DNA of 64,000 bases from Patescibacteria group bacterium (GCA_040902515.1 JBBDXB010000006.1:66219-130218); one strand, 5' to 3'. Shown: positions 3,663 through 25,451, counted from the first letter of the stretch. The notes: generated by a model not told the origin, from the letters alone. Made by a program: numbers and translations.

Positions 3663-4646
3663 TTAATCCGTAACGATCGCGCCCTTGGCGTGCCAGTCGG
3701 CGCGCGGGTCGTTGAGATACTCGTAGACGTCTCCGGCCGCGACCGACCCCTCCCCAACCGCCGTACCGATCTGGCGGAACATCGCGGACGCCGTGGTGTT
3801 GTCGCCGGCACCCCACACCCGCTCCGCGCTGGTCCGCTGGTGGTCGTTCACGATCAGGAACTGCCCGTCATCCACCTTGGCTCCGAGCATGTCGGGAATC
3901 GCCCGCTCCGGCGTCGAGCCGATCTCCACGAACAGCCCGTCCACCGCGATCTCGCCTTTCCCCTCGTACGACTGGTCCAACGTAACGCCGGTCACCGTCT
4001 GTTCGCCGAGCACCTTCGTGACGCTGTTCGACAGCACGAACGTCACGTTCGGCTTCGACTTCACGCGATCCACCCAGATGGGCTCCGCCCGGAACGTGTC
4101 CCGACGGTGGATCCAGAAGACTTCCTTCGCGAATTCGCTGAGGTGCAGCGCACCCTTGGCACCGGAATCGCCGCCGCCCACGATCGCCACGCGCTTGTCC
4201 TTGAAGAACGCCGCATCACAGGTGACGCAGTACGACACGCCCTTGCCTTCGAATTCCTTCTCACCCGGCACGCCGAGCTTGTTGTGCTCGGTACCGGTTC
4301 CGACCAGCACCGCACGGGCCGACAGCTCCGCTCCCGCCCATCCTTTCAGGTGGAACAGGTCGCCGTCCCGGGATACCTCGGTGACCTTTTCCGGAAGCAG
4401 CGTCGCCTCGTCGTATGCCTTCGCGTGATCCCCGAAGTGCTTCGCCAGGTCCATGCCGCTTATCGACTGGAACCCGAGGTAGTCCTCGACCAGGTGGGTC
4501 GTGGAGACGTACCCACCGAGCTCCGGCCCCATGACGACGTTCGTCAGCTTGTACCGCGACGCGTAGACGGATGCCGCGAGACCTGCCGGGCCGGCACCGA
4601 TGATGGCGATATCGTAGCGGTCAGGAGTGTTTGTCTTTTCCGTCAC
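3663..4646 (-). CDS. trxB: Thioredoxin reductase (327 aa from a GTG start; the longer ORF to 4892 is an Arg-rich artefact)
   Basis: FAD motif IIGAGPAG, redox centre CVTCD (CxxC), NADPH motif VGGGDSG. The GTG start is preceded by the RBS GGGAGGA. Confidence 0.9.
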   Translation of the reverse strand: MTEKTNTPDRYDIAIIGAGPAGLAASVYASRYKLTNVVMGPELGGYVSTTHLVEDYLGFQSISGMDLAKHFGDHAKAYDEATLLPEKVTEVSRDGDLFHLKGWAGAELSARAVLVGTGTEHNKLGVPGEKEFEGKGVSYCVTCDAAFFKDKRVAIVGGGDSGAKGALHLSEFAKEVFWIHRRDTFRAEPIWVDRVKSKPNVTFVLSNSVTKVLGEQTVTGVTLDQSYEGKGEIAVDGLFVEIGSTPERAIPDMLGAKVDDGQFLIVNDHQRTSAERVWGAGDNTTASAMFRQIGTAVGEGSVAAGDVYEYLNDPRADWHAKGAIVTD

Positions 4647-4657
4647 GTCGATCCTCC

Positions 4658-4978
4658 CTAGAGATGCGGCGTCAGCTTGCCCTCGAGTTCCGGCTTCGGT
4701 AGCACGCCGATGATCGTCTCGACCGGCTGTCCGCCCTTGAACAGGATCAGGGTCGGGATGCTCATCACGCCGAACTGCTGCGCCAGCTCCTGCTGCTCGT
4801 CCACGTTGACCTTGCCGACGGCCAGCCGATCCTTCTTCTCGTCGGCGACGGCATCGACGATCGGATCGAGCACCTTGCAGGGGCCGCACCACTCCGCCCA
4901 GAAATCCACGAGTACCGGCTTGTCGGACTGCTCGACCTCCTTCGTGAAATTCTCCTTGGTAACTACGGTTTCGGGCAT
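4658..4978 (-). CDS. trxA: Thioredoxin
   Basis: WCGPC active site in a 106-aa protein, immediately upstream of trxB (12-nt gap). Confidence 0.9.
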   Translation of the reverse strand: MPETVVTKENFTKEVEQSDKPVLVDFWAEWCGPCKVLDPIVDAVADEKKDRLAVGKVNVDEQQELAQQFGVMSIPTLILFKGGQPVETIIGVLPKPELEGKLTPHL

Positions 4979-20251: not shown

Positions 20252-22072
20252 CTACTCGACGATCGCTTTGATCCGCCGCACGCCGGCGCCGACGGACTCC
20301 TGTTTCTTGATCCTGAACGTGCCGATCTGACCGGTGTGTTCCACGTGCGGTCCGCCGCAGAATTCCATGGACCGGACGCTGTCCGGATCGCCGATGACGT
20401 AGACGGAGACGATGTCCGGGTACTTGTGCCCGAATTCCATCTGCGCGCCGAGCCGCTCCGCTTCCTCACGCGGCATCTCCTTGCGGGTAACCGGCAGGTC
20501 CTCGCGGATCCACTCGTTCACCAGCGCCTCGACTTGGTTGAGTTCCTCCTCCGCAAGCTTCTCGGGATGCGCGAAGTCGAAGCGGAGCCGCTCCGCGGTG
20601 ATGTTGCTGCCGCGCTGCTTCACCTGGTCACCCAGTACGTCACGGAGCGCCGCCAGCAGCAGGTGCGTGGCGGTGTGTTGCCGGACGACCTTCTCGGAGT
20701 GGTCGGCGAGGCCGCCGGCGAACTTCTGCTTGGCGCCGGCACGGGACTTTTGCTGGTGGGCTTTTTGAGCTTTGTAAAATTCTCCTTCAACCCTTCTGTG
20801 ATTTACGGTAATGCTACGGCGTCGTAGTTCTTCGATACTAACTTCCAGTGGAAATCCATACGTCTGAAATAAATCGAAAAGAATTGCGCCACTCGTAAAG
20901 ACTGGCAGTGTTTGGGGCGTAAACTTTTCACGAAATTCCCGTTCAAATTCATCAAATTTTCGCAGTCCTTTGGTCAGAGACTTATGGAACTTCTCTTCTT
21001 CCTTGAGTAGCTCATCCCGGATCGTCTTCGCCTCGCGCTCAAGCTCCGGGTACGCATCCTTGAACTTTGCTACGACGACCTCCGCGACCGATTCACTGAA
21101 CGGATACTCGATCTTCAGGAGTCGTGCCTGCCGCACCGCCCGGCGGACCAACCGCCGCAGGATGTAGCCGCGGTCCGTGTTCGATGGTCGCACGCCGTCC
21201 GCGATCATGAACGTCTCGGCTTTCAGATGGTCCGCGATGATCCGTTCCGCCCGGACCAGCTCCGGGTTGTCCTCGTGCCGCTCCTTCACGTTCGCGAGTT
21301 TCCGGATCCGCTCGATGATCGGCGCGAACAGGTCGGTCTCGTACACGTTCCGCTTCTGCTGCAATACCACTGCCAGCCGCTCGAGTCCCATCCCAGTGTC
21401 CACGTTCTTCTGCGCCAACGGTTCGAACGCGCCGTCCGCCGTCTTCTCGTACTGCATGAAGACGTTGTTCCAGACCTCCAGCCAGCGATCGTCCTCGGCG
21501 GGCTCGGATTCGGGAGCGCCCTTACCGATCCAGTAGAATATCTCGGTGTCAGGGCCGCACGGGCCGGTCTCACCGGCCGGTCCCCACCAGTTGTCTTCCT
21601 TGCCGTAGAAGAAGATCCGATCCTTCGGCACGCCCTGCGTTTCCCAGAGCTTCGCGGCTTCTTCGTCCTTCGGGACGCCAGGTGTGGCTTTATCGCCCGC
21701 AAAACACGAAACGGCGATTTTATCTTTCTCAAGCCTGAGATTCTCCGTCAGCAGCTCCCAGCTCCAGGCGATCGCCTCTTCCTTGAAGTAGTCACCGAGC
21801 GACCAGTTGCCGAGCATCTCGAAGAACGTGAGGTGCGATTCGTCGCCGACCTCGTCGATGTCCACGGTGCGGATGCACTTCTGCGCGTCCGCCAGGCGCT
21901 TGCCGGCCGGATGCGGCTCGCCGAGCAGGTACGGCACCAGCGGGTGCATGCCGGCGGTCGTGAAGAGGACCGTCGGATCGTGCTGCGGTACCACCGGCGC
22001 GCTCGGGATGATCGCGTGCCCGCGTTCCTCGAAGAACTGCAGGAACGTGTTCCGAATGTCGGAGGCTTTCAT
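20252..22072 (-). CDS. alaS: Alanyl-tRNA synthetase, short form (606 aa) ending right after the editing domain, so it lacks the C-Ala domain
   Basis: N-terminal class II catalytic core (FTTAGM, LGNWSLGDYFK), editing-domain HxxxH/CGG motifs (HTATHLL; CGGPHVEHTGQIGTFRI...GVRRIKAIVE at the very C-terminus). Confidence 0.85.
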   Translation of the reverse strand: MKASDIRNTFLQFFEERGHAIIPSAPVVPQHDPTVLFTTAGMHPLVPYLLGEPHPAGKRLADAQKCIRTVDIDEVGDESHLTFFEMLGNWSLGDYFKEEAIAWSWELLTENLRLEKDKIAVSCFAGDKATPGVPKDEEAAKLWETQGVPKDRIFFYGKEDNWWGPAGETGPCGPDTEIFYWIGKGAPESEPAEDDRWLEVWNNVFMQYEKTADGAFEPLAQKNVDTGMGLERLAVVLQQKRNVYETDLFAPIIERIRKLANVKERHEDNPELVRAERIIADHLKAETFMIADGVRPSNTDRGYILRRLVRRAVRQARLLKIEYPFSESVAEVVVAKFKDAYPELEREAKTIRDELLKEEEKFHKSLTKGLRKFDEFEREFREKFTPQTLPVFTSGAILFDLFQTYGFPLEVSIEELRRRSITVNHRRVEGEFYKAQKAHQQKSRAGAKQKFAGGLADHSEKVVRQHTATHLLLAALRDVLGDQVKQRGSNITAERLRFDFAHPEKLAEEELNQVEALVNEWIREDLPVTRKEMPREEAERLGAQMEFGHKYPDIVSVYVIGDPDSVRSMEFCGGPHVEHTGQIGTFRIKKQESVGAGVRRIKAIVE

Positions 22073-22123
22073 ACTCTCTAGCTTACGTTCGTTGTTTGCG
22101 TGAAGCGAGAATAAGTCAGCACA

Positions 22124-23860
22124 TCAAAACTGCGTCAAGTCAATCAAATACTCTTTCGATCCGGGCATGGGTTTGTAATGCGGCGGTTCCAACGGACACA
22201 TTAACTCAAAAGCCGGTAAAAGCGGCCAGCAACTTTCCAGCACGGGCACCACCCCATTCATCCGTCGCTGTACCGCATGCTCATAGAAGCCATTGCGATC
22301 GAGGAACCGGTGCTTCAGCGGCTTCGCAAGCACCAGATCGCGAAATCCTCCCGACACCATCGATAACCCTGTTGCGTGCGACGCCATAAACGCTGACAAC
22401 ATCACGGGAGTGCTGGGCGAAACCTGCCGAATCGCTTTCGTCAGCAACTTGAGGATAGCGCTGCTCGTATAACGCGGGGCTAAACCGAAAGTGTAGAGCC
22501 GTGTGGATTCAACCGCGTTGTCGATAGGGAATCCCTGATAGAGCAAGGCATCCTCTTTGTATTCCCGATTTACTCTGGCAGCCGAGATTACGGAAAAAGG
22601 CAGGCTCGCTCCCTTTGCAAACAGACCGAAAGCCCAATCGGCTCGAGGAGAGTGGATGTAATGCAATGAGGCATGTATAACCCTTGCCAGCTCTATCGGT
22701 ACGGGCCTGAATTCGAGTGGAACGAAGCCGCCCCGCTGCTCAGCGGCTCCCAGTTCTCCACCTACCCGGTGAATATGCCAGGTACCTTCAGTAAAATTCC
22801 TGTACTCCCCTTCAATTTCCGACACGAGAGAACTGACGACTTTCAGGCGTTGCTCAACCAAAGCCAGCTGTTCTTCGGCAATGTTCTTAAGCACTTCGGG
22901 CTTCAGCCGATGCTGCGCGATTTTCTCAGCGGACAGCCGCGTGATATTTGACCAATCATTGAAAGCGCCTGCATCGGTAAGATACTCGGCGAGCACGGCA
23001 CCATCGGACACGGCTTTTTCAAACGGAATCGTCGTAAGCCGAAAGGCGATTTGATACTTAAGATCCGTCCTGTCGGCATGTTTCGGCAGCTTCAAATTCC
23101 GCACATAGGAGCTGATTTGTCCCTGCGCCCACCGCATGAGCGGGTCAGTCGGCCAATTCTTGACGGTAGGTTTGGGAGTCAGCTTCGTTCTTCCCTCGAG
23201 GATCGATTTGCGTAAGTTCGTACGACGACTATGGGAACGCTCGGCTTGGGCCATGGCCAAGACCAGACGTGAGAAAAAAGTGTCCAATGGGTACAGGGGA
23301 ATTCGCCAATCCGATCGTTCGCAACATGACCCGGCGGAACCCTTGGGGCAGATATGTATACGATGCCAGCCAGGAGGAAAGTCGGTGGCCTGATTAGCCA
23401 GTAACGCGATGCCTTGGTTGGTGGGTAACCGCCCCAGTGCTCGAGTTACCAACGAATATGCTTTTGCATAGTGCTCGGAGAGGTCCGGGTACTCCATGGC
23501 TTGTCTTTTCAGAGCACCCGCCGTGACTTGTAACGCCTCTTCTTCCGTAAGAAGACAATCATCCGTACGCAGTTGTTTCATCGCACGCCGCGATGCCTGG
23601 CGAGAAGCACCCTCTGTAAGGCCAAACTCCCGGAAGCGCTTCGCCATACTAGGCACCAAAGCATTAAGCCAGATAAGACGATACCCTGTCCTCGGAAAAA
23701 CCTTGGAAAGCAGTCGTGCCGCATTATGCTGTTCGGCTCGTTCACAGACCAGGATAAGGTTTGCCCGGCGAACCAAAGTGCCGGTTGGTGGAGCCGTCCC
23801 GGACGTCGTCAGGTCGGTTTCCATTGGCCGCTTAACCATCGGACCGCCTTCCGGTCTCAA
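22124..23860 (-). CDS. Large orphan protein (578 aa), no recognisable domain; third gene of the low-GC island
   Basis: A long ORF with normal amino-acid composition and lower-GC codon usage than its neighbours. It overlaps the upstream Ham1-like gene by about 29 nt. It contains the Cys cluster HICPKGSAGSCCERSDW. Confidence 0.55.
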   Translation of the reverse strand: MRPEGGPMVKRPMETDLTTSGTAPPTGTLVRRANLILVCERAEQHNAARLLSKVFPRTGYRLIWLNALVPSMAKRFREFGLTEGASRQASRRAMKQLRTDDCLLTEEEALQVTAGALKRQAMEYPDLSEHYAKAYSLVTRALGRLPTNQGIALLANQATDFPPGWHRIHICPKGSAGSCCERSDWRIPLYPLDTFFSRLVLAMAQAERSHSRRTNLRKSILEGRTKLTPKPTVKNWPTDPLMRWAQGQISSYVRNLKLPKHADRTDLKYQIAFRLTTIPFEKAVSDGAVLAEYLTDAGAFNDWSNITRLSAEKIAQHRLKPEVLKNIAEEQLALVEQRLKVVSSLVSEIEGEYRNFTEGTWHIHRVGGELGAAEQRGGFVPLEFRPVPIELARVIHASLHYIHSPRADWAFGLFAKGASLPFSVISAARVNREYKEDALLYQGFPIDNAVESTRLYTFGLAPRYTSSAILKLLTKAIRQVSPSTPVMLSAFMASHATGLSMVSGGFRDLVLAKPLKHRFLDRNGFYEHAVQRRMNGVVPVLESCWPLLPAFELMCPLEPPHYKPMPGSKEYLIDLTQF

Positions 23861-24494
23861 AGAACGTACGAATCGCTTTCTCTAGGCGGTCCCAGGAAAC
23901 TTCCCCTTTGGCCAGCTCGCTTGGCGATAAGTCGAAGAAGTTCTTGCCGAATTGCGGGTAATACCAGAGACTGCAAAGCCAGATTCCCGGCCTGTACTTA
24001 CGACGATCGTAGGATTCCTGCATGATCCCTTTGGAACCATCGACCTCCAGTGAAAAGATCCGCTTCCCTTTGTGGGCGATGGCGGCTGCTTCCCGCCAAA
24101 TCATTTTCCGTTCATCGCCGCGCTTGTCCTTCATAAGCTCAAGGATCGCGTCGAGCCGTTCGAAATCCGTGGCGTTCTCTCGGTTGATGAAACGCCTGGT
24201 GAAAAGTTTATTCCATCTACTGCCCAGAGCAGGAATGTCAATTCCGCCGTCTGTAGCAATGGCATATCCGTCGTACCGCTTGGAAAAAGTAACCGCTTTA
24301 TCCGTCGCGATACTTTCGAAACTTTGTCCTTCTTCATTCAACTCAGCAGAGATGGACGTGTCTTCCAGTCTTACCGGCTCGAAGTATCCGCTGACAATCC
24401 GTGAGAGTTTTTGGATTTTGTGCGGATTGGTCGTGCCTAATAAGATGGTTCTGGTCACAGTCGTACCGCTACATTTTCTTCTAGTAATCGCCAA
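23832..24494 (-). CDS. Ham1/ITPase-family non-canonical purine NTP pyrophosphatase (RdgB-like). The true start is probably internal (around VTRTILLGTT).
   Basis: Motifs GTTNPHKIQ (compare TGNxGKLRE), ATDGGIDIPALG (compare ADDSGL.VDALxGxPG), and a C-terminal W..YYPQFGKNFFDLSPSELAKGEVSWDR (compare GFGYDPIF...EEKN..SHR). Confidence 0.7.
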   Translation of the reverse strand: MAITRRKCSGTTVTRTILLGTTNPHKIQKLSRIVSGYFEPVRLEDTSISAELNEEGQSFESIATDKAVTFSKRYDGYAIATDGGIDIPALGSRWNKLFTRRFINRENATDFERLDAILELMKDKRGDERKMIWREAAAIAHKGKRIFSLEVDGSKGIMQESYDRRKYRPGIWLCSLWYYPQFGKNFFDLSPSELAKGEVSWDRLEKAIRTFFETGRRSDG

Positions 24495-25054
24495 TTCCGG
24501 CTAAATGTCTCCGGGGTATTGTTGATGCGAACGAAACGCGCGCCAACATACTCTGCTAGATACGCTGTGGCAGCCCTTGCGATATCCTGGTGAAGGCCGA
24601 TTGTGGTTGAATCTTCCGGATCACGGTCGCGCGTGGTGTCGCACGCACGCCAGTCAGCAATTTGTTCAGGATCAGCTTCAATGAACGCATAAACGTTCGC
24701 GCTAATCTGCTGTTCAATTTTTGGGTTGATTACCAGTGATTCACCTTGCCTGTACAGTACATGAGTATTTAGCACGGCTGGACCCCTGCTTCGGATGTCA
24801 CAAGCCAGCTCTTCGATGATTCGGTAGAGCTCGCTTTGGGGAATCTCCTGAGAGATTCGATCACGGTCAGAAAGTGATGGCCTAAGCGCCTGGGCTCGTT
24901 CGAACAGCTCTTGGCCGAAATTAACTACCTCTACCGAAAGTTTACTCTGGTCTCGAAAAGCCTCGATCAAGTAATCTTTCCCTGATCCAGACACACCTGT
25001 CACAACCATAAGAGGATTGCGTTCGTCGGGATTTGATGGGTTCTCAGGAGTCAT
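24455..25054 (-). CDS. Archaeal-type adenylate kinase (AdkA-like NMP kinase)
   Basis: P-loop VTGVSGSGKD and strong similarity along its length to archaeal AdkA (VLNTH..., FIEADPEQIADWRACDTTRDRDPEDSTTIGLHQDIARAATAYLAEYVGARFVRINN versus the archaeal [22 protein letters not shown]...). Low GC. Confidence 0.7.
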   Translation of the reverse strand: MTPENPSNPDERNPLMVVTGVSGSGKDYLIEAFRDQSKLSVEVVNFGQELFERAQALRPSLSDRDRISQEIPQSELYRIIEELACDIRSRGPAVLNTHVLYRQGESLVINPKIEQQISANVYAFIEADPEQIADWRACDTTRDRDPEDSTTIGLHQDIARAATAYLAEYVGARFVRINNTPETFSRNWRLLEENVAVRL

Positions 25055-25118
25055 GAAAACTAACGATAGTGGCCGTTAGTTATACAACCATGCTTACCAC
25101 AAGTCAACGATAAGCTGG

Positions 25119-25451
25119 CTACTCGTCCTTGCGCAGAATCCGCCGCTTCTCCTTGGCGGCTTCTCTCTTACCCTCACCGGCGGCGTCCTTGATGTCTACG
25201 ATCACGCCGTCCGCGGCTTTCCGGACCTGCGCGACGATCTCGTCCACCGACCGGCCCTGCCTCAACTGTTCGAATTTCTGCTTGGCCTGCTTGCGGGTCT
25301 TCTCGCCCTTATCCGGCGCCAGGAACGCCGCGGCCGCAGCGCCAAGCGCCGCACCGACCGCAAAGCCCGAACCGCCTCCGCCCGACCGCTGGTGCGGACA
25401 GTCCTTGCAGTTGCATTCGTGTCTATGACTCATCGCCCCCAGTATACGCAA
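25119..25451 (-). CDS. Small YtxH/DUF948-like protein (Cys/His-containing N-terminus, Ala/Gly hydrophobic segment, Lys/Glu-rich helix)
   Basis: 110-aa ORF whose pattern (CNCKDCPH, GAALGAAAAAFLAP, charged C-terminal helix) is typical of general-stress YtxH-like proteins. Confidence 0.45.
   Translation of the reverse strand: MRILGAMSHRHECNCKDCPHQRSGGGGSGFAVGAALGAAAAAFLAPDKGEKTRKQAKQKFEQLRQGRSVDEIVAQVRKAADGVIVDIKDAAGEGKREAAKEKRRILRKDE

Follow-up and report, generated by a model that had tools for sequence, protein, structure and literature searches.

We analysed a window of 64,000 nucleotides from a Patescibacteria (Candidate Phyla Radiation, CPR) genome that was assembled from a metagenome (GCA_040902515.1 JBBDXB010000006.1:66219-130218), and we present the detailed results for positions 22073-25118, an island of low guanine and cytosine (GC) content with three genes on the minus strand. 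An earlier note on this DNA had described the genes as an archaeal-type adenylate kinase, a Ham1-type nucleoside triphosphate (NTP) pyrophosphatase and a large protein without recognisable domain, and we refer to them as genes 1, 2 and 3, respectively. Our main result concerns gene 3, which is predicted to contain a GNAT domain resembling Mom, the phage Mu enzyme that modifies adenine in DNA, and whose relatives are accompanied by, or fused to, nucleotide enzymes. The features are listed below; all residues of gene 3 are counted on its longest reading frame of 578 amino acids (aa).

22073-25118, minus strand: low-GC island with the three-gene cassette (GC content and tetranucleotide deviation)
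25079-25107, minus strand: promoter-like site, TTGACT at 25107-25102, a 17-nt spacer and TATAAC at 25084-25079 (read from the sequence)
24455-25054, minus strand: gene 1, archaeal-AdkA-like P-loop nucleotide kinase, 199 aa (Pfam AAA_17, PDB 1ki9)
23832-24458, minus strand: gene 2, NTP pyrophosphatase of Ham1/RdgB fold, 208 aa, longest open reading frame from 24494 (PF01725)
22124-23839, minus strand: gene 3, predicted three-domain Mom-like protein, 571 aa (AlphaFold2 model; start from L097 and P0002/L001)
23195-23773, minus strand: gene 3 domain 1, predicted nucleoside monophosphate (NMP) kinase-like fold, residues ~30-222 (fold searches)
22796-23173, minus strand: gene 3 domain 2, helical and family-specific, residues 230-355 (conserved columns, modelled helices)
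22127-22795, minus strand: gene 3 domain 3, predicted Mom-like GNAT, residues 356-578 (fold search, signature residues)
22658-22663, 22499-22501 and 22460-22462, minus strand: signature codons of gene 3 for H400/Y401, R454 and S467, respectively

The GC content of the island was 0.523 compared to a mean of 0.640 (standard deviation 0.030) for the window, and it lies below all 610 of the 610 intervals of the same size that we compared across the whole 64 kb. The largest tetranucleotide deviation of the window, a measure which the earlier note had proposed to compute, also falls in the island. For the third codon positions (GC3) we obtained 0.579 for gene 3, 0.584 for gene 2 and 0.465 for gene 1, whereas the flanking genes (alaS, ytxH-like, mnmA, pyrD-like and tatD) range from 0.78 to 0.88. 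The visibly lower GC content reported from inspection, third codon positions included, is therefore borne out by the computed values. The island is bordered by the ytxH-like gene (25119-25451) and alaS (20252-22072), both on the same strand as the cassette. As the note had stated, there is no integrase beside it among the open reading frames of the window, no tRNA at its borders (the nearest are at 1984 and 54411) and no meaningful flanking repeat, and Rfam gave zero matches at the island even at E ≤ 1. The modules of the closest relatives have a GC content of 0.50-0.52, equal to that of the island, which fits a fairly recent import into a 64%-GC genome. In the window genome the three-gene cassette is horizontally acquired, as its foreign composition had led the earlier note to propose.

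The longest open reading frames of the three genes run from 24455 to 25054 (199 aa), from 23832 to 24494 (220 aa) and from 22124 to 23860 (578 aa). Their overlaps of about 40 and 29 nt had been taken as a sign of translational coupling; these lengths are an artefact of choosing the longest frames. We set the starts by alignments of homologues and by an independent Logan gene call that is available for this genome (L097). Gene 2 then starts with GTG at 24458 (208 aa) and shares the 4-nt overlap GTGA with the kinase stop, and gene 3 starts with ATG at 23839 (571 aa), which agrees with both P0002/L001 and the L097 call and leaves an 8-nt overlap ATGGTTAA with the stop of gene 2. With overlaps of 4 and 8 nt the trio would therefore be co-translated as a unit, and the idea of coupling holds at these shorter lengths. 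The public NCBI record of gene 3 (P0001; WED32_00255, "hypothetical protein") contains only the last 376 aa, without the kinase-like domain, compared to 571 aa in the Logan call. The promoter-like site lies within the low-GC island, with 24 nt between its end and the kinase ATG downstream, and this suggests that the cassette may have brought its own promoter. The evidence is weak, as the site fails the rule of the scanning tool, which demands T as the sixth base of the -10 hexamer, and the promoter and terminator scan gave results at chance level.

For gene 1 the match to Pfam AAA_17 (6.5e-12) and the best PDB match, the archaeal adenylate kinase 1ki9 (4.1e-10, colinear over residues 12-179), agree with each other and with the archaeal AdkA-like kinase proposed earlier. 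Down to an E-value of 5.7e-6 the PDB matches were archaeal adenylate kinases and one designed nanoparticle protein. In the alignment to 1ki9 the Walker A motif GVSGSGKD of gene 1 stands opposite GVPGVGGT and its lid motif TTRDRD opposite ETRNRD; the Lys-Asp variant of the Walker A motif (GKD) is kept in 11 diverse cassette kinases. Against the NCBIfam model for archaeal adenylate kinase (PRK04040) gene 1 scored 78.7 bits where 155 are required, and hence we do not regard it as an AdkA orthologue. A homologue search with gene 1 returned six close proteins, all of them located within the same cassette.

Gene 2 scored 47.0 bits against PF01725 (cut-off 22.5). Together with the intact TTNPHK and other catalytic motifs this supports the Ham1/RdgB type that had been assigned to it. 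The scores against the equivalog models were far lower than required, with 45.6 bits for the NCBIfam XTP/dITP diphosphatase (cut-off 234) and 36.3 bits for TIGR00042 (cut-off 145). PDB alignments to RdgB/Ham1 proteins cover only residues 16-131, the N-terminal two thirds. The phosphate- and metal-binding motifs are retained: TTNPHK, EEG, DKA and TDGG of gene 2 correspond to TGNVGK, EETG, LKA and DDSG of RdgB, where the RdgB sequence used for comparison is consistent with the PDB alignment to 1k7k. In the subgroup of the window GIWLCS and SWD stand in place of the base-recognition motifs GFGYDP and SHR. We infer that gene 2 is active as an NTP pyrophosphatase and that its base preference is non-canonical. 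Judged by these scores and motifs, the Ham1 and AdkA-like proteins of the cassette are members of their superfamilies that fall outside the housekeeping equivalogs.

Direct searches with the protein of gene 3 gave zero matches in Pfam, NCBIfam, PHROGs and PADLOC. Among the PDB sequences there was nothing credible, with 6ynv alone at an E-value of 1.1, and a shallow profile of five sequences found nothing useful in the PDB. As far as direct searches are concerned, the description as a protein without recognisable domain is accurate; profile and structure searches nevertheless resolve an NMP-kinase-like domain and a Mom-like GNAT domain. A word-indexed homology search returned five relatives only. 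The profile of these five retrieved 73 proteins in the indexed search, and in an exhaustive HMMER scan of 1.84 billion proteins it matched 320 clusters at 50% identity. Pfam PF25680, the Mom protein family, was matched by 48 of the 74 family members at E ≤ 0.01 (best 8e-12); the relatives scored between 14 and 31.5 bits, some of them above the gathering threshold of 27.1. Furthermore, 18 of the 74 carry a fused Cytidylate_kin domain (best 3e-21), other relatives have a fused AAA_17 or AAA_18 kinase domain, and two have a fused Ham1 domain.

The AlphaFold2 model of gene 3 has a predicted local distance difference test (pLDDT) score of 88.2 and a predicted template modelling (pTM) score of 0.87. 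With this model Foldseek ranked phage Mu Mom (8bv8) first in the PDB at 3.7e-9, the next GNAT following at 2.4e-4, and the GNAT fold of gene 3 is in this search closer to Mom than to other GNATs. The structure search that the earlier note had called for thus leads to a relative of Mom and to no common housekeeping enzyme. For residues 1-225 we used a separate model (pLDDT 80), and its matches were almost throughout kinases of the P-loop type acting on NMPs or small molecules, with cytidine monophosphate kinase first. Domain 1 lacks the Walker A motif GxxxxGK[ST], the equivalent strand-helix junction being LVCERAEQHNAARL, and is therefore predicted not to be an active kinase. The assignment of this domain as kinase-like rests on fold searches because hhalign gave no direct signal between the N-domain of the window protein and the AdkA-like or Cmk-fused domains (E 0.25-0.5); a weak transitive link came by way of the N-domains of relatives, which have 245 aa (first step E 7e-4, second 6e-5). 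Domain 2 is modelled as helices at 240-352 and shows the motifs W..DPL, DxxDLxxQxxFRLTT and EEQ, with invariant or near-invariant columns at W236, P240, D263, D266, Q270, F273-T277, E330, Q331 and R338.

Mom moves glycine from Gly-tRNA(Gly) to the N6 of adenine in double-stranded DNA, and its residues H58/Y59, R111 and S124 are important or essential, R111 and S124 being essential (PMC13219725); the latter two are R101 and S114 in the numbering of PMC7261163. In gene 3 the corresponding residues are H400, Y401, R454 and S467. They are near-invariant in family alignments of 131 and 74 sequences and align with the HY, ELNRMW and PRNSES motifs of Mom in both hmmsearch and hhalign, with spacings of 53 and 13 residues in gene 3 compared to 52 and 13 in Mom. 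Further along the domain the FADERCG motif of Mom (D149/R151) falls opposite MASHATG in the window protein (family consensus MPxYAKT), where no Asp or Arg is visible in what is a low-confidence alignment. Mom needs a helix-turn-helix (HTH)-like insertion at its residues ~175-209 for the modification of DNA. The equivalent region of gene 3, residues 515-552, is modelled as a beta-hairpin with one helix of four residues and without the basic second helix. Taken together, the model and the conserved residues indicate that gene 3 is composed of an inactive NMP-kinase-like domain, a helical domain and a Mom-like GNAT domain. We place it in a new branch of Mom-like GNATs and not among the Mom orthologues because it stays under the Pfam threshold, has two added domains, is cellular and seems to be unlike Mom on the acceptor side.

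The conservation of the trio was studied in 22 loci from GTDB species representatives and 64 loci from metagenomes, which were scanned with custom hidden Markov models. For all five relatives of the first search round an AAA_17 kinase gene and a Ham1 gene adjoin, at identities down to 28%, and the trio is kept although the gene order is kinase-Mom-Ham1 in L005 and the orientation is divergent in L004. The clade of the window, which we call group I, comprises 21 non-redundant loci with at least 1.5 kb on each side. Within 2.5 kb we found a kinase in 20 of them, a Ham1 gene in 19 and both in 19; the kinase is AdkA-like except in three loci, where it is guanylate-kinase-like. The same kinase and Ham1 models had 0 matches among the 661 open reading frames located more than 3 kb away in these loci. 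The association also extends to fusion proteins, in which the Mom-like core is joined to Ham1 (P0101, L040, L041), to an AAA_17 kinase (P0134) or to Cytidylate_kin (P0202). Co-occurrence in other genomes had been set beforehand as the test for a dedicated, non-housekeeping module centred on nucleotides, and with the trio present in 19 of the 21 group I loci, in addition to the fusions, that view of the cassette is upheld.

Outside the trio the flanks consist of unrelated housekeeping genes, for example rpsB, SHMT and ychF. We considered the adjacent alaS as a clue to a tRNA donor and rejected it, as no aminoacyl-tRNA synthetase is consistently near the relatives. A radical-SAM gene joins the trio in five loci; its score of 22.6 bits, where 180 would be needed, led us to reject it as a viperin. 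Beside the Gmk-like, Ham1 and Mom-like genes we repeatedly found a YunG-family protein (PF24585, up to 93 bits; L011, L015, L019 at ~4170-4840, L053, L063 and L092), and for this neighbour we found no solved relative and no NCBIfam match. In L002 (1-7000) a close relative lies beside GmrSD, a Dam-like methyltransferase and ParE/Phd, in L095 (1-5100) beside a type I restriction-modification (R-M) system and a PD-(D/E)xK protein, and in L004 (3800-8800) beside a Tn3 transposase/resolvase, which hints at contexts of defence islands or mobile elements in some genomes. The two genes that border the island in the window have peculiarities of their own. The alanyl-tRNA synthetase encoded by alaS (20252-22072, minus strand) has just 606 aa, with the catalytic and tRNA_SAD domains and without the C-terminal C-Ala, and the GC content dips to 0.52-0.54 near 20500-21250, in its Lys/Glu-rich part. 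The YtxH-like protein (25119-25451, minus strand; PF12732, 44 bits) has a Cys/His-rich N-terminus, HRHECNCKDCPH, which resembles a metal-binding knuckle.

Beyond group I the Mom-like core occurs in two sister subfamilies. In the first, of ~533 aa (L021-L026 and L053-L091, ~36 non-redundant loci), it is followed by a C-terminal CYTH triphosphate-tunnel domain, which carries the ExExK signature and matches 1yem in the PDB (1e-4). These genes usually adjoin either a 160-aa protein with a weak, sub-threshold match to DUF4406 or Gmk-like and Ham1 genes. The second subfamily, of ~420 aa (L042-L051), has as neighbours two radical-SAM/SPASM enzymes, a class-I methyltransferase and a HAD phosphatase with weak similarity to the YjjG nucleotidase, and its locus looks like a more elaborate cluster for nucleoside modification.

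The carriers among the 22 loci from GTDB representatives are Patescibacteria in 11 cases, DPANN archaea (Micrarchaeota, Nanoarchaeota and Woesearchaeota) in 4, metagenome-assembled genomes labelled Gammaproteobacteria in 4, Vitreimonas in 1 and unclassified bacteria in 2. The archaeal flavour noted earlier is thus correct insofar as DPANN archaea also carry the module, whereas most carriers are Patescibacteria. In most carriers the GC content of the module equals that of the host, which suggests long residence there. Searches with tblastn against 50,697 GenBank phage records and 72,556 plasmids (PLSDB) gave zero matches, and among 2.9 million IMG/VR contigs there was one related locus (L030; IMGVR_UViG_3300033150_002805, 76.8 kb). 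On these grounds we rejected an origin from phages or plasmids. The relative in L030 is a 314-aa core without extensions, and the next gene encodes 170 aa with a very weak match to TmcA_N (E 0.036).

Considering the three proteins together, we propose that they form a pathway by which a free purine nucleotide is acylated or aminoacylated on its base, and we assign this reading a probability of about 45%. In a first step the Ham1-like enzyme would hydrolyse a (deoxy)nucleoside triphosphate, (d)NTP, to the monophosphate, (d)NMP, and pyrophosphate. As its base-reading motifs are changed, the preferred substrate would probably be something other than inosine or xanthosine triphosphate (ITP/XTP). 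In a second step the Mom-like GNAT domain of gene 3 would move an acyl or aminoacyl group onto the base amine, with an aminoacyl-tRNA as the donor by analogy with Mom, and the NMP-kinase-like domain, which has no P-loop, would serve to bind the acceptor nucleotide or else the tRNA. In a third step the AdkA-like kinase would phosphorylate the (modified) NMP again to the diphosphate, and general enzymes would complete the triphosphate. The most likely target would be an adenine nucleotide, at its exocyclic N6 amine, to which the AdkA-like kinase, the N6-adenine chemistry of Mom and the purine-type fold of Ham1 all point. Ham1 enzymes are also tied to N6-substituted adenine analogues, as resistance to 6-hydroxylaminopurine (HAP) shows (PMC5940212). 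A mononucleotide acceptor is the most economical reading because the family is wired to NMP kinases, Ham1 and CYTH and contains an NMP-kinase domain of its own that appears to be dead. It is also favoured by the fact that the partners of the family, three kinds of NMP kinase, Ham1 and CYTH, are enzymes of free nucleotides, and by the DNA-handling context of true Mom not being evident here (no matches in GenBank phages or plasmids and one in IMG/VR; HTH-like insertion reduced in the model). Of the two roles that the earlier note had offered for an undescribed nucleotide-pool module, defence and nucleotide modification, we favour the latter; for defence we found no direct evidence.

Several observations weigh against this proposal. 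The window protein itself gives no Pfam Mom match at E ≤ 1, and the second half of its GNAT domain aligns to Mom with low confidence only. Gene 3 is basic (isoelectric point 9.6; net charge of the N-domain +13), which would suit a DNA or RNA substrate equally well as a tRNA donor. The neighbourhood ties the family to nucleotide metabolism, which does not prove a free-nucleotide acceptor for a Mom-like enzyme. A kinase and a pyrophosphatase that act on one nucleotide could undo each other's work in a futile cycle if they had the same specificity. Acyl-CoA instead of an aminoacyl-tRNA could also be the donor.

The proposal can be narrowed to a cellular and pre-replicative form of "momylation". 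Here an aminoacyl-tRNA-dependent Mom-like enzyme would aminoacylate free (d)AMP, the product rearranging as in Mom to an adduct of the N6-carbamoylmethyl type, the Ham1-like enzyme would both supply (d)AMP and deplete the canonical triphosphate, and the AdkA-like kinase would return the product to the pool. Drawn by analogy with Mom, this particular version appears improbable to us. If true, hypermodified adenine should occur in the DNA or RNA of some Patescibacteria and DPANN archaea. Neither a free nucleotide modified in a tRNA-dependent way nor a cellular genome with hypermodification of the Mom type would then have a precedent.

A different explanation, which we regard as unlikely while taking it seriously, places the modification at the level of the polymer. 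The Mom-like enzyme would modify adenine (or cytosine) in DNA as Mu Mom does, or tRNA or rRNA in the manner of TmcA/NAT10, which combine a P-loop domain with a GNAT domain; the Ham1-like enzyme and the kinase would handle modified mononucleotides released by turnover and prevent their random re-incorporation. Double-stranded DNA is the substrate of Mom itself (PMC13219725), the nearest structure to gene 3 is Mom, gene 3 is strongly basic, above all in its N-domain, and restriction genes adjoin some related loci. Ham1 enzymes are known for the house-cleaning of base-modified purine NTPs. However, sanitation would account for the Ham1-like enzyme and neither for a dedicated kinase nor for the fusions of active kinases and CYTH to the Mom-like core, and the characterised Mom needs neither partner. 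The D149/R151 positions differ in the low-confidence alignment, the insertion that serves Mom at the DNA groove is reduced in the model, and our locus scans revealed no consistent partner nuclease or DNA-binding gene.

The cassette could alternatively belong to a conflict system. A modified NTP, produced by the kinase together with the Mom-like enzyme, would then poison viral replication or signal alarm, and the Ham1-like enzyme would limit self-toxicity or reset the signal. Mobility and foreign composition in the window genome would fit such a role, as would the restriction, toxin-antitoxin and Tn3 genes beside the relatives in L002, L095 and L004 and the radical-SAM gene beside the trio in five loci. 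There is also a precedent for base-modified nucleotides and Ham1 domains in immunity: the Kongming system consists of the deaminase KomA, the Ham1-domain protein KomB and the SIR2 protein KomC, and the deaminase and kinases are reported to make dITP, which is sensed by the Ham1-domain protein (bioRxiv 10.1101/2024.12.20.629578; PMC13454610). The PADLOC-DB 2.0 models, on the other hand, had zero matches at E ≤ 1 for the three proteins and the ytxH-like neighbour, no effector (SIR2, nuclease or TIR) is present, and the radical-SAM neighbour is no viperin. In most loci the neighbours are housekeeping genes (rpsB, SHMT, ychF, alaS), and the equal GC content of module and host in most genomes suggests long residence. 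Given the lack of PADLOC matches and the small number of related loci beside restriction or toxin-antitoxin genes, we do not follow the earlier note in its suggestion of a defensive role and consider a conflict system clearly unlikely.

Salvage or detoxification, by which nucleotide-importing Patescibacteria and DPANN episymbionts would convert scavenged base-modified purine nucleotides to usable or harmless forms, is very improbable in our view. It would agree with the GTDB carriers, mostly Patescibacteria (11/22) and DPANN (4/22), and with every partner gene coding for an enzyme of nucleotide interconversion, but GNAT enzymes add acyl groups and do not remove them, the retained transfer-signature residues of Mom point to a modifying and not a demodifying activity, and a family that is rare (320 clusters at 50% identity in 1.84 billion proteins) and patchy is ill fitted to a core need. 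Chance adjacency of an ordinary adenylate kinase and an ITPase to an unrelated hypothetical protein could appeal to the Ham1 score above the Pfam cut-off and to an AdkA match (PRK04040) that is real though below its cut-off, and is nevertheless hardly credible, being contradicted by a trio that is kept down to 28% identity with shuffled order and fusions, by scores far under the NCBIfam equivalog cut-offs (78.7 vs 155 and 45.6 vs 234), by the altered Ham1 base-recognition motifs and by the foreign composition.

The pathway acting on free purine nucleotides thus remains our preferred reading. The chemistry of Mom, in which a charged tRNA modifies a nucleobase, was established recently and for one phage enzyme acting on DNA only. 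The cassette defines a separate and conserved Mom-like branch tied to kinases, NTP pyrophosphatases and CYTH, with hardly any carriers outside ultra-small bacteria and archaea that are uncultured, lineages for which almost nothing is known about nucleotide modification. If its enzymes act on free nucleotides, they would represent a new route to base-modified nucleotides, with possible consequences for the hypermodification of genomes or RNA, for conflict or signalling based on nucleotides and for our view of how episymbionts manage their nucleotide pools. A protein that is publicly annotated as hypothetical, and truncated, would in this way receive a concrete and testable function. In full-text literature on Mom together with Ham1, kinase or cytidylate kinase we did not find the module described, though Iyer, Aravind and colleagues may mention it earlier.

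We conclude by comparing the cassette to known systems. The cassette kinase shares about 170 colinear residues with archaeal AdkA (1ki9, 1nks), including R-x-R-D of the lid; it differs in its score under the PRK04040 cut-off (78.7 vs 155), in its unusual yet conserved Walker A motif GxSGxGKD and in being seen solely within the cassette in the loci that we examined. Similarly, gene 2 resembles RdgB/ITPA/Ham1 in passing the Pfam Ham1p_like model and in keeping TxNxxK, the Glu, the Lys and D(S/G)G, and differs in lying far under the equivalog cut-offs and in the replaced C-terminal base-recognition motifs. With phage Mu Mom (8bv8; PF25680) gene 3 shares the HY motif, the Mom-specific Arg (R111) and the Ser (S124) at nearly equal spacing (53/13 vs 52/13), and many of its relatives score on the Pfam Mom model. 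Mom has 231 aa, however, and gene 3 is more than twice as long owing to the helical and the degenerate NMP-kinase-like domains. In addition, the essential D149/R151 positions of Mom read otherwise in gene 3 according to the low-confidence alignment, and the HTH-like DNA-binding insertion is reduced in the model. The gene 3 family is cellular (Patescibacteria, DPANN) and Mom is phage-borne, and gene 3 is partnered with a kinase and Ham1 in 19 of 21 group I loci, whereas Mom needs neither.

Prokaryotic viperins have adjacent nucleotide kinases. With these pairs and with Kongming the cassette would have in common that a kinase and a base- or sugar-modifying enzyme yield a non-canonical NTP, which a protein of Ham1 fold handles. 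It differs in that SIR2 or any other effector is absent, that the modifier would be a Mom-like GNAT instead of a deaminase or radical-SAM enzyme and that PADLOC gave no match. Phage T4 makes hydroxymethyl-dC in a pre-replicative pathway consisting of the dCTPase gp56, the dCMP hydroxymethylase gp42 and the dNMP kinase gp1. The T4 target is a pyrimidine, whereas that of the cassette is probably a purine, and the cassette is found in cellular genomes and not in phage. Our proposal follows the logic of the T4 pathway, as the cassette appears to combine the same three activities, with gene 2 as the NTP pyrophosphatase, gene 3 as the base modifier and gene 1 as the NMP kinase.

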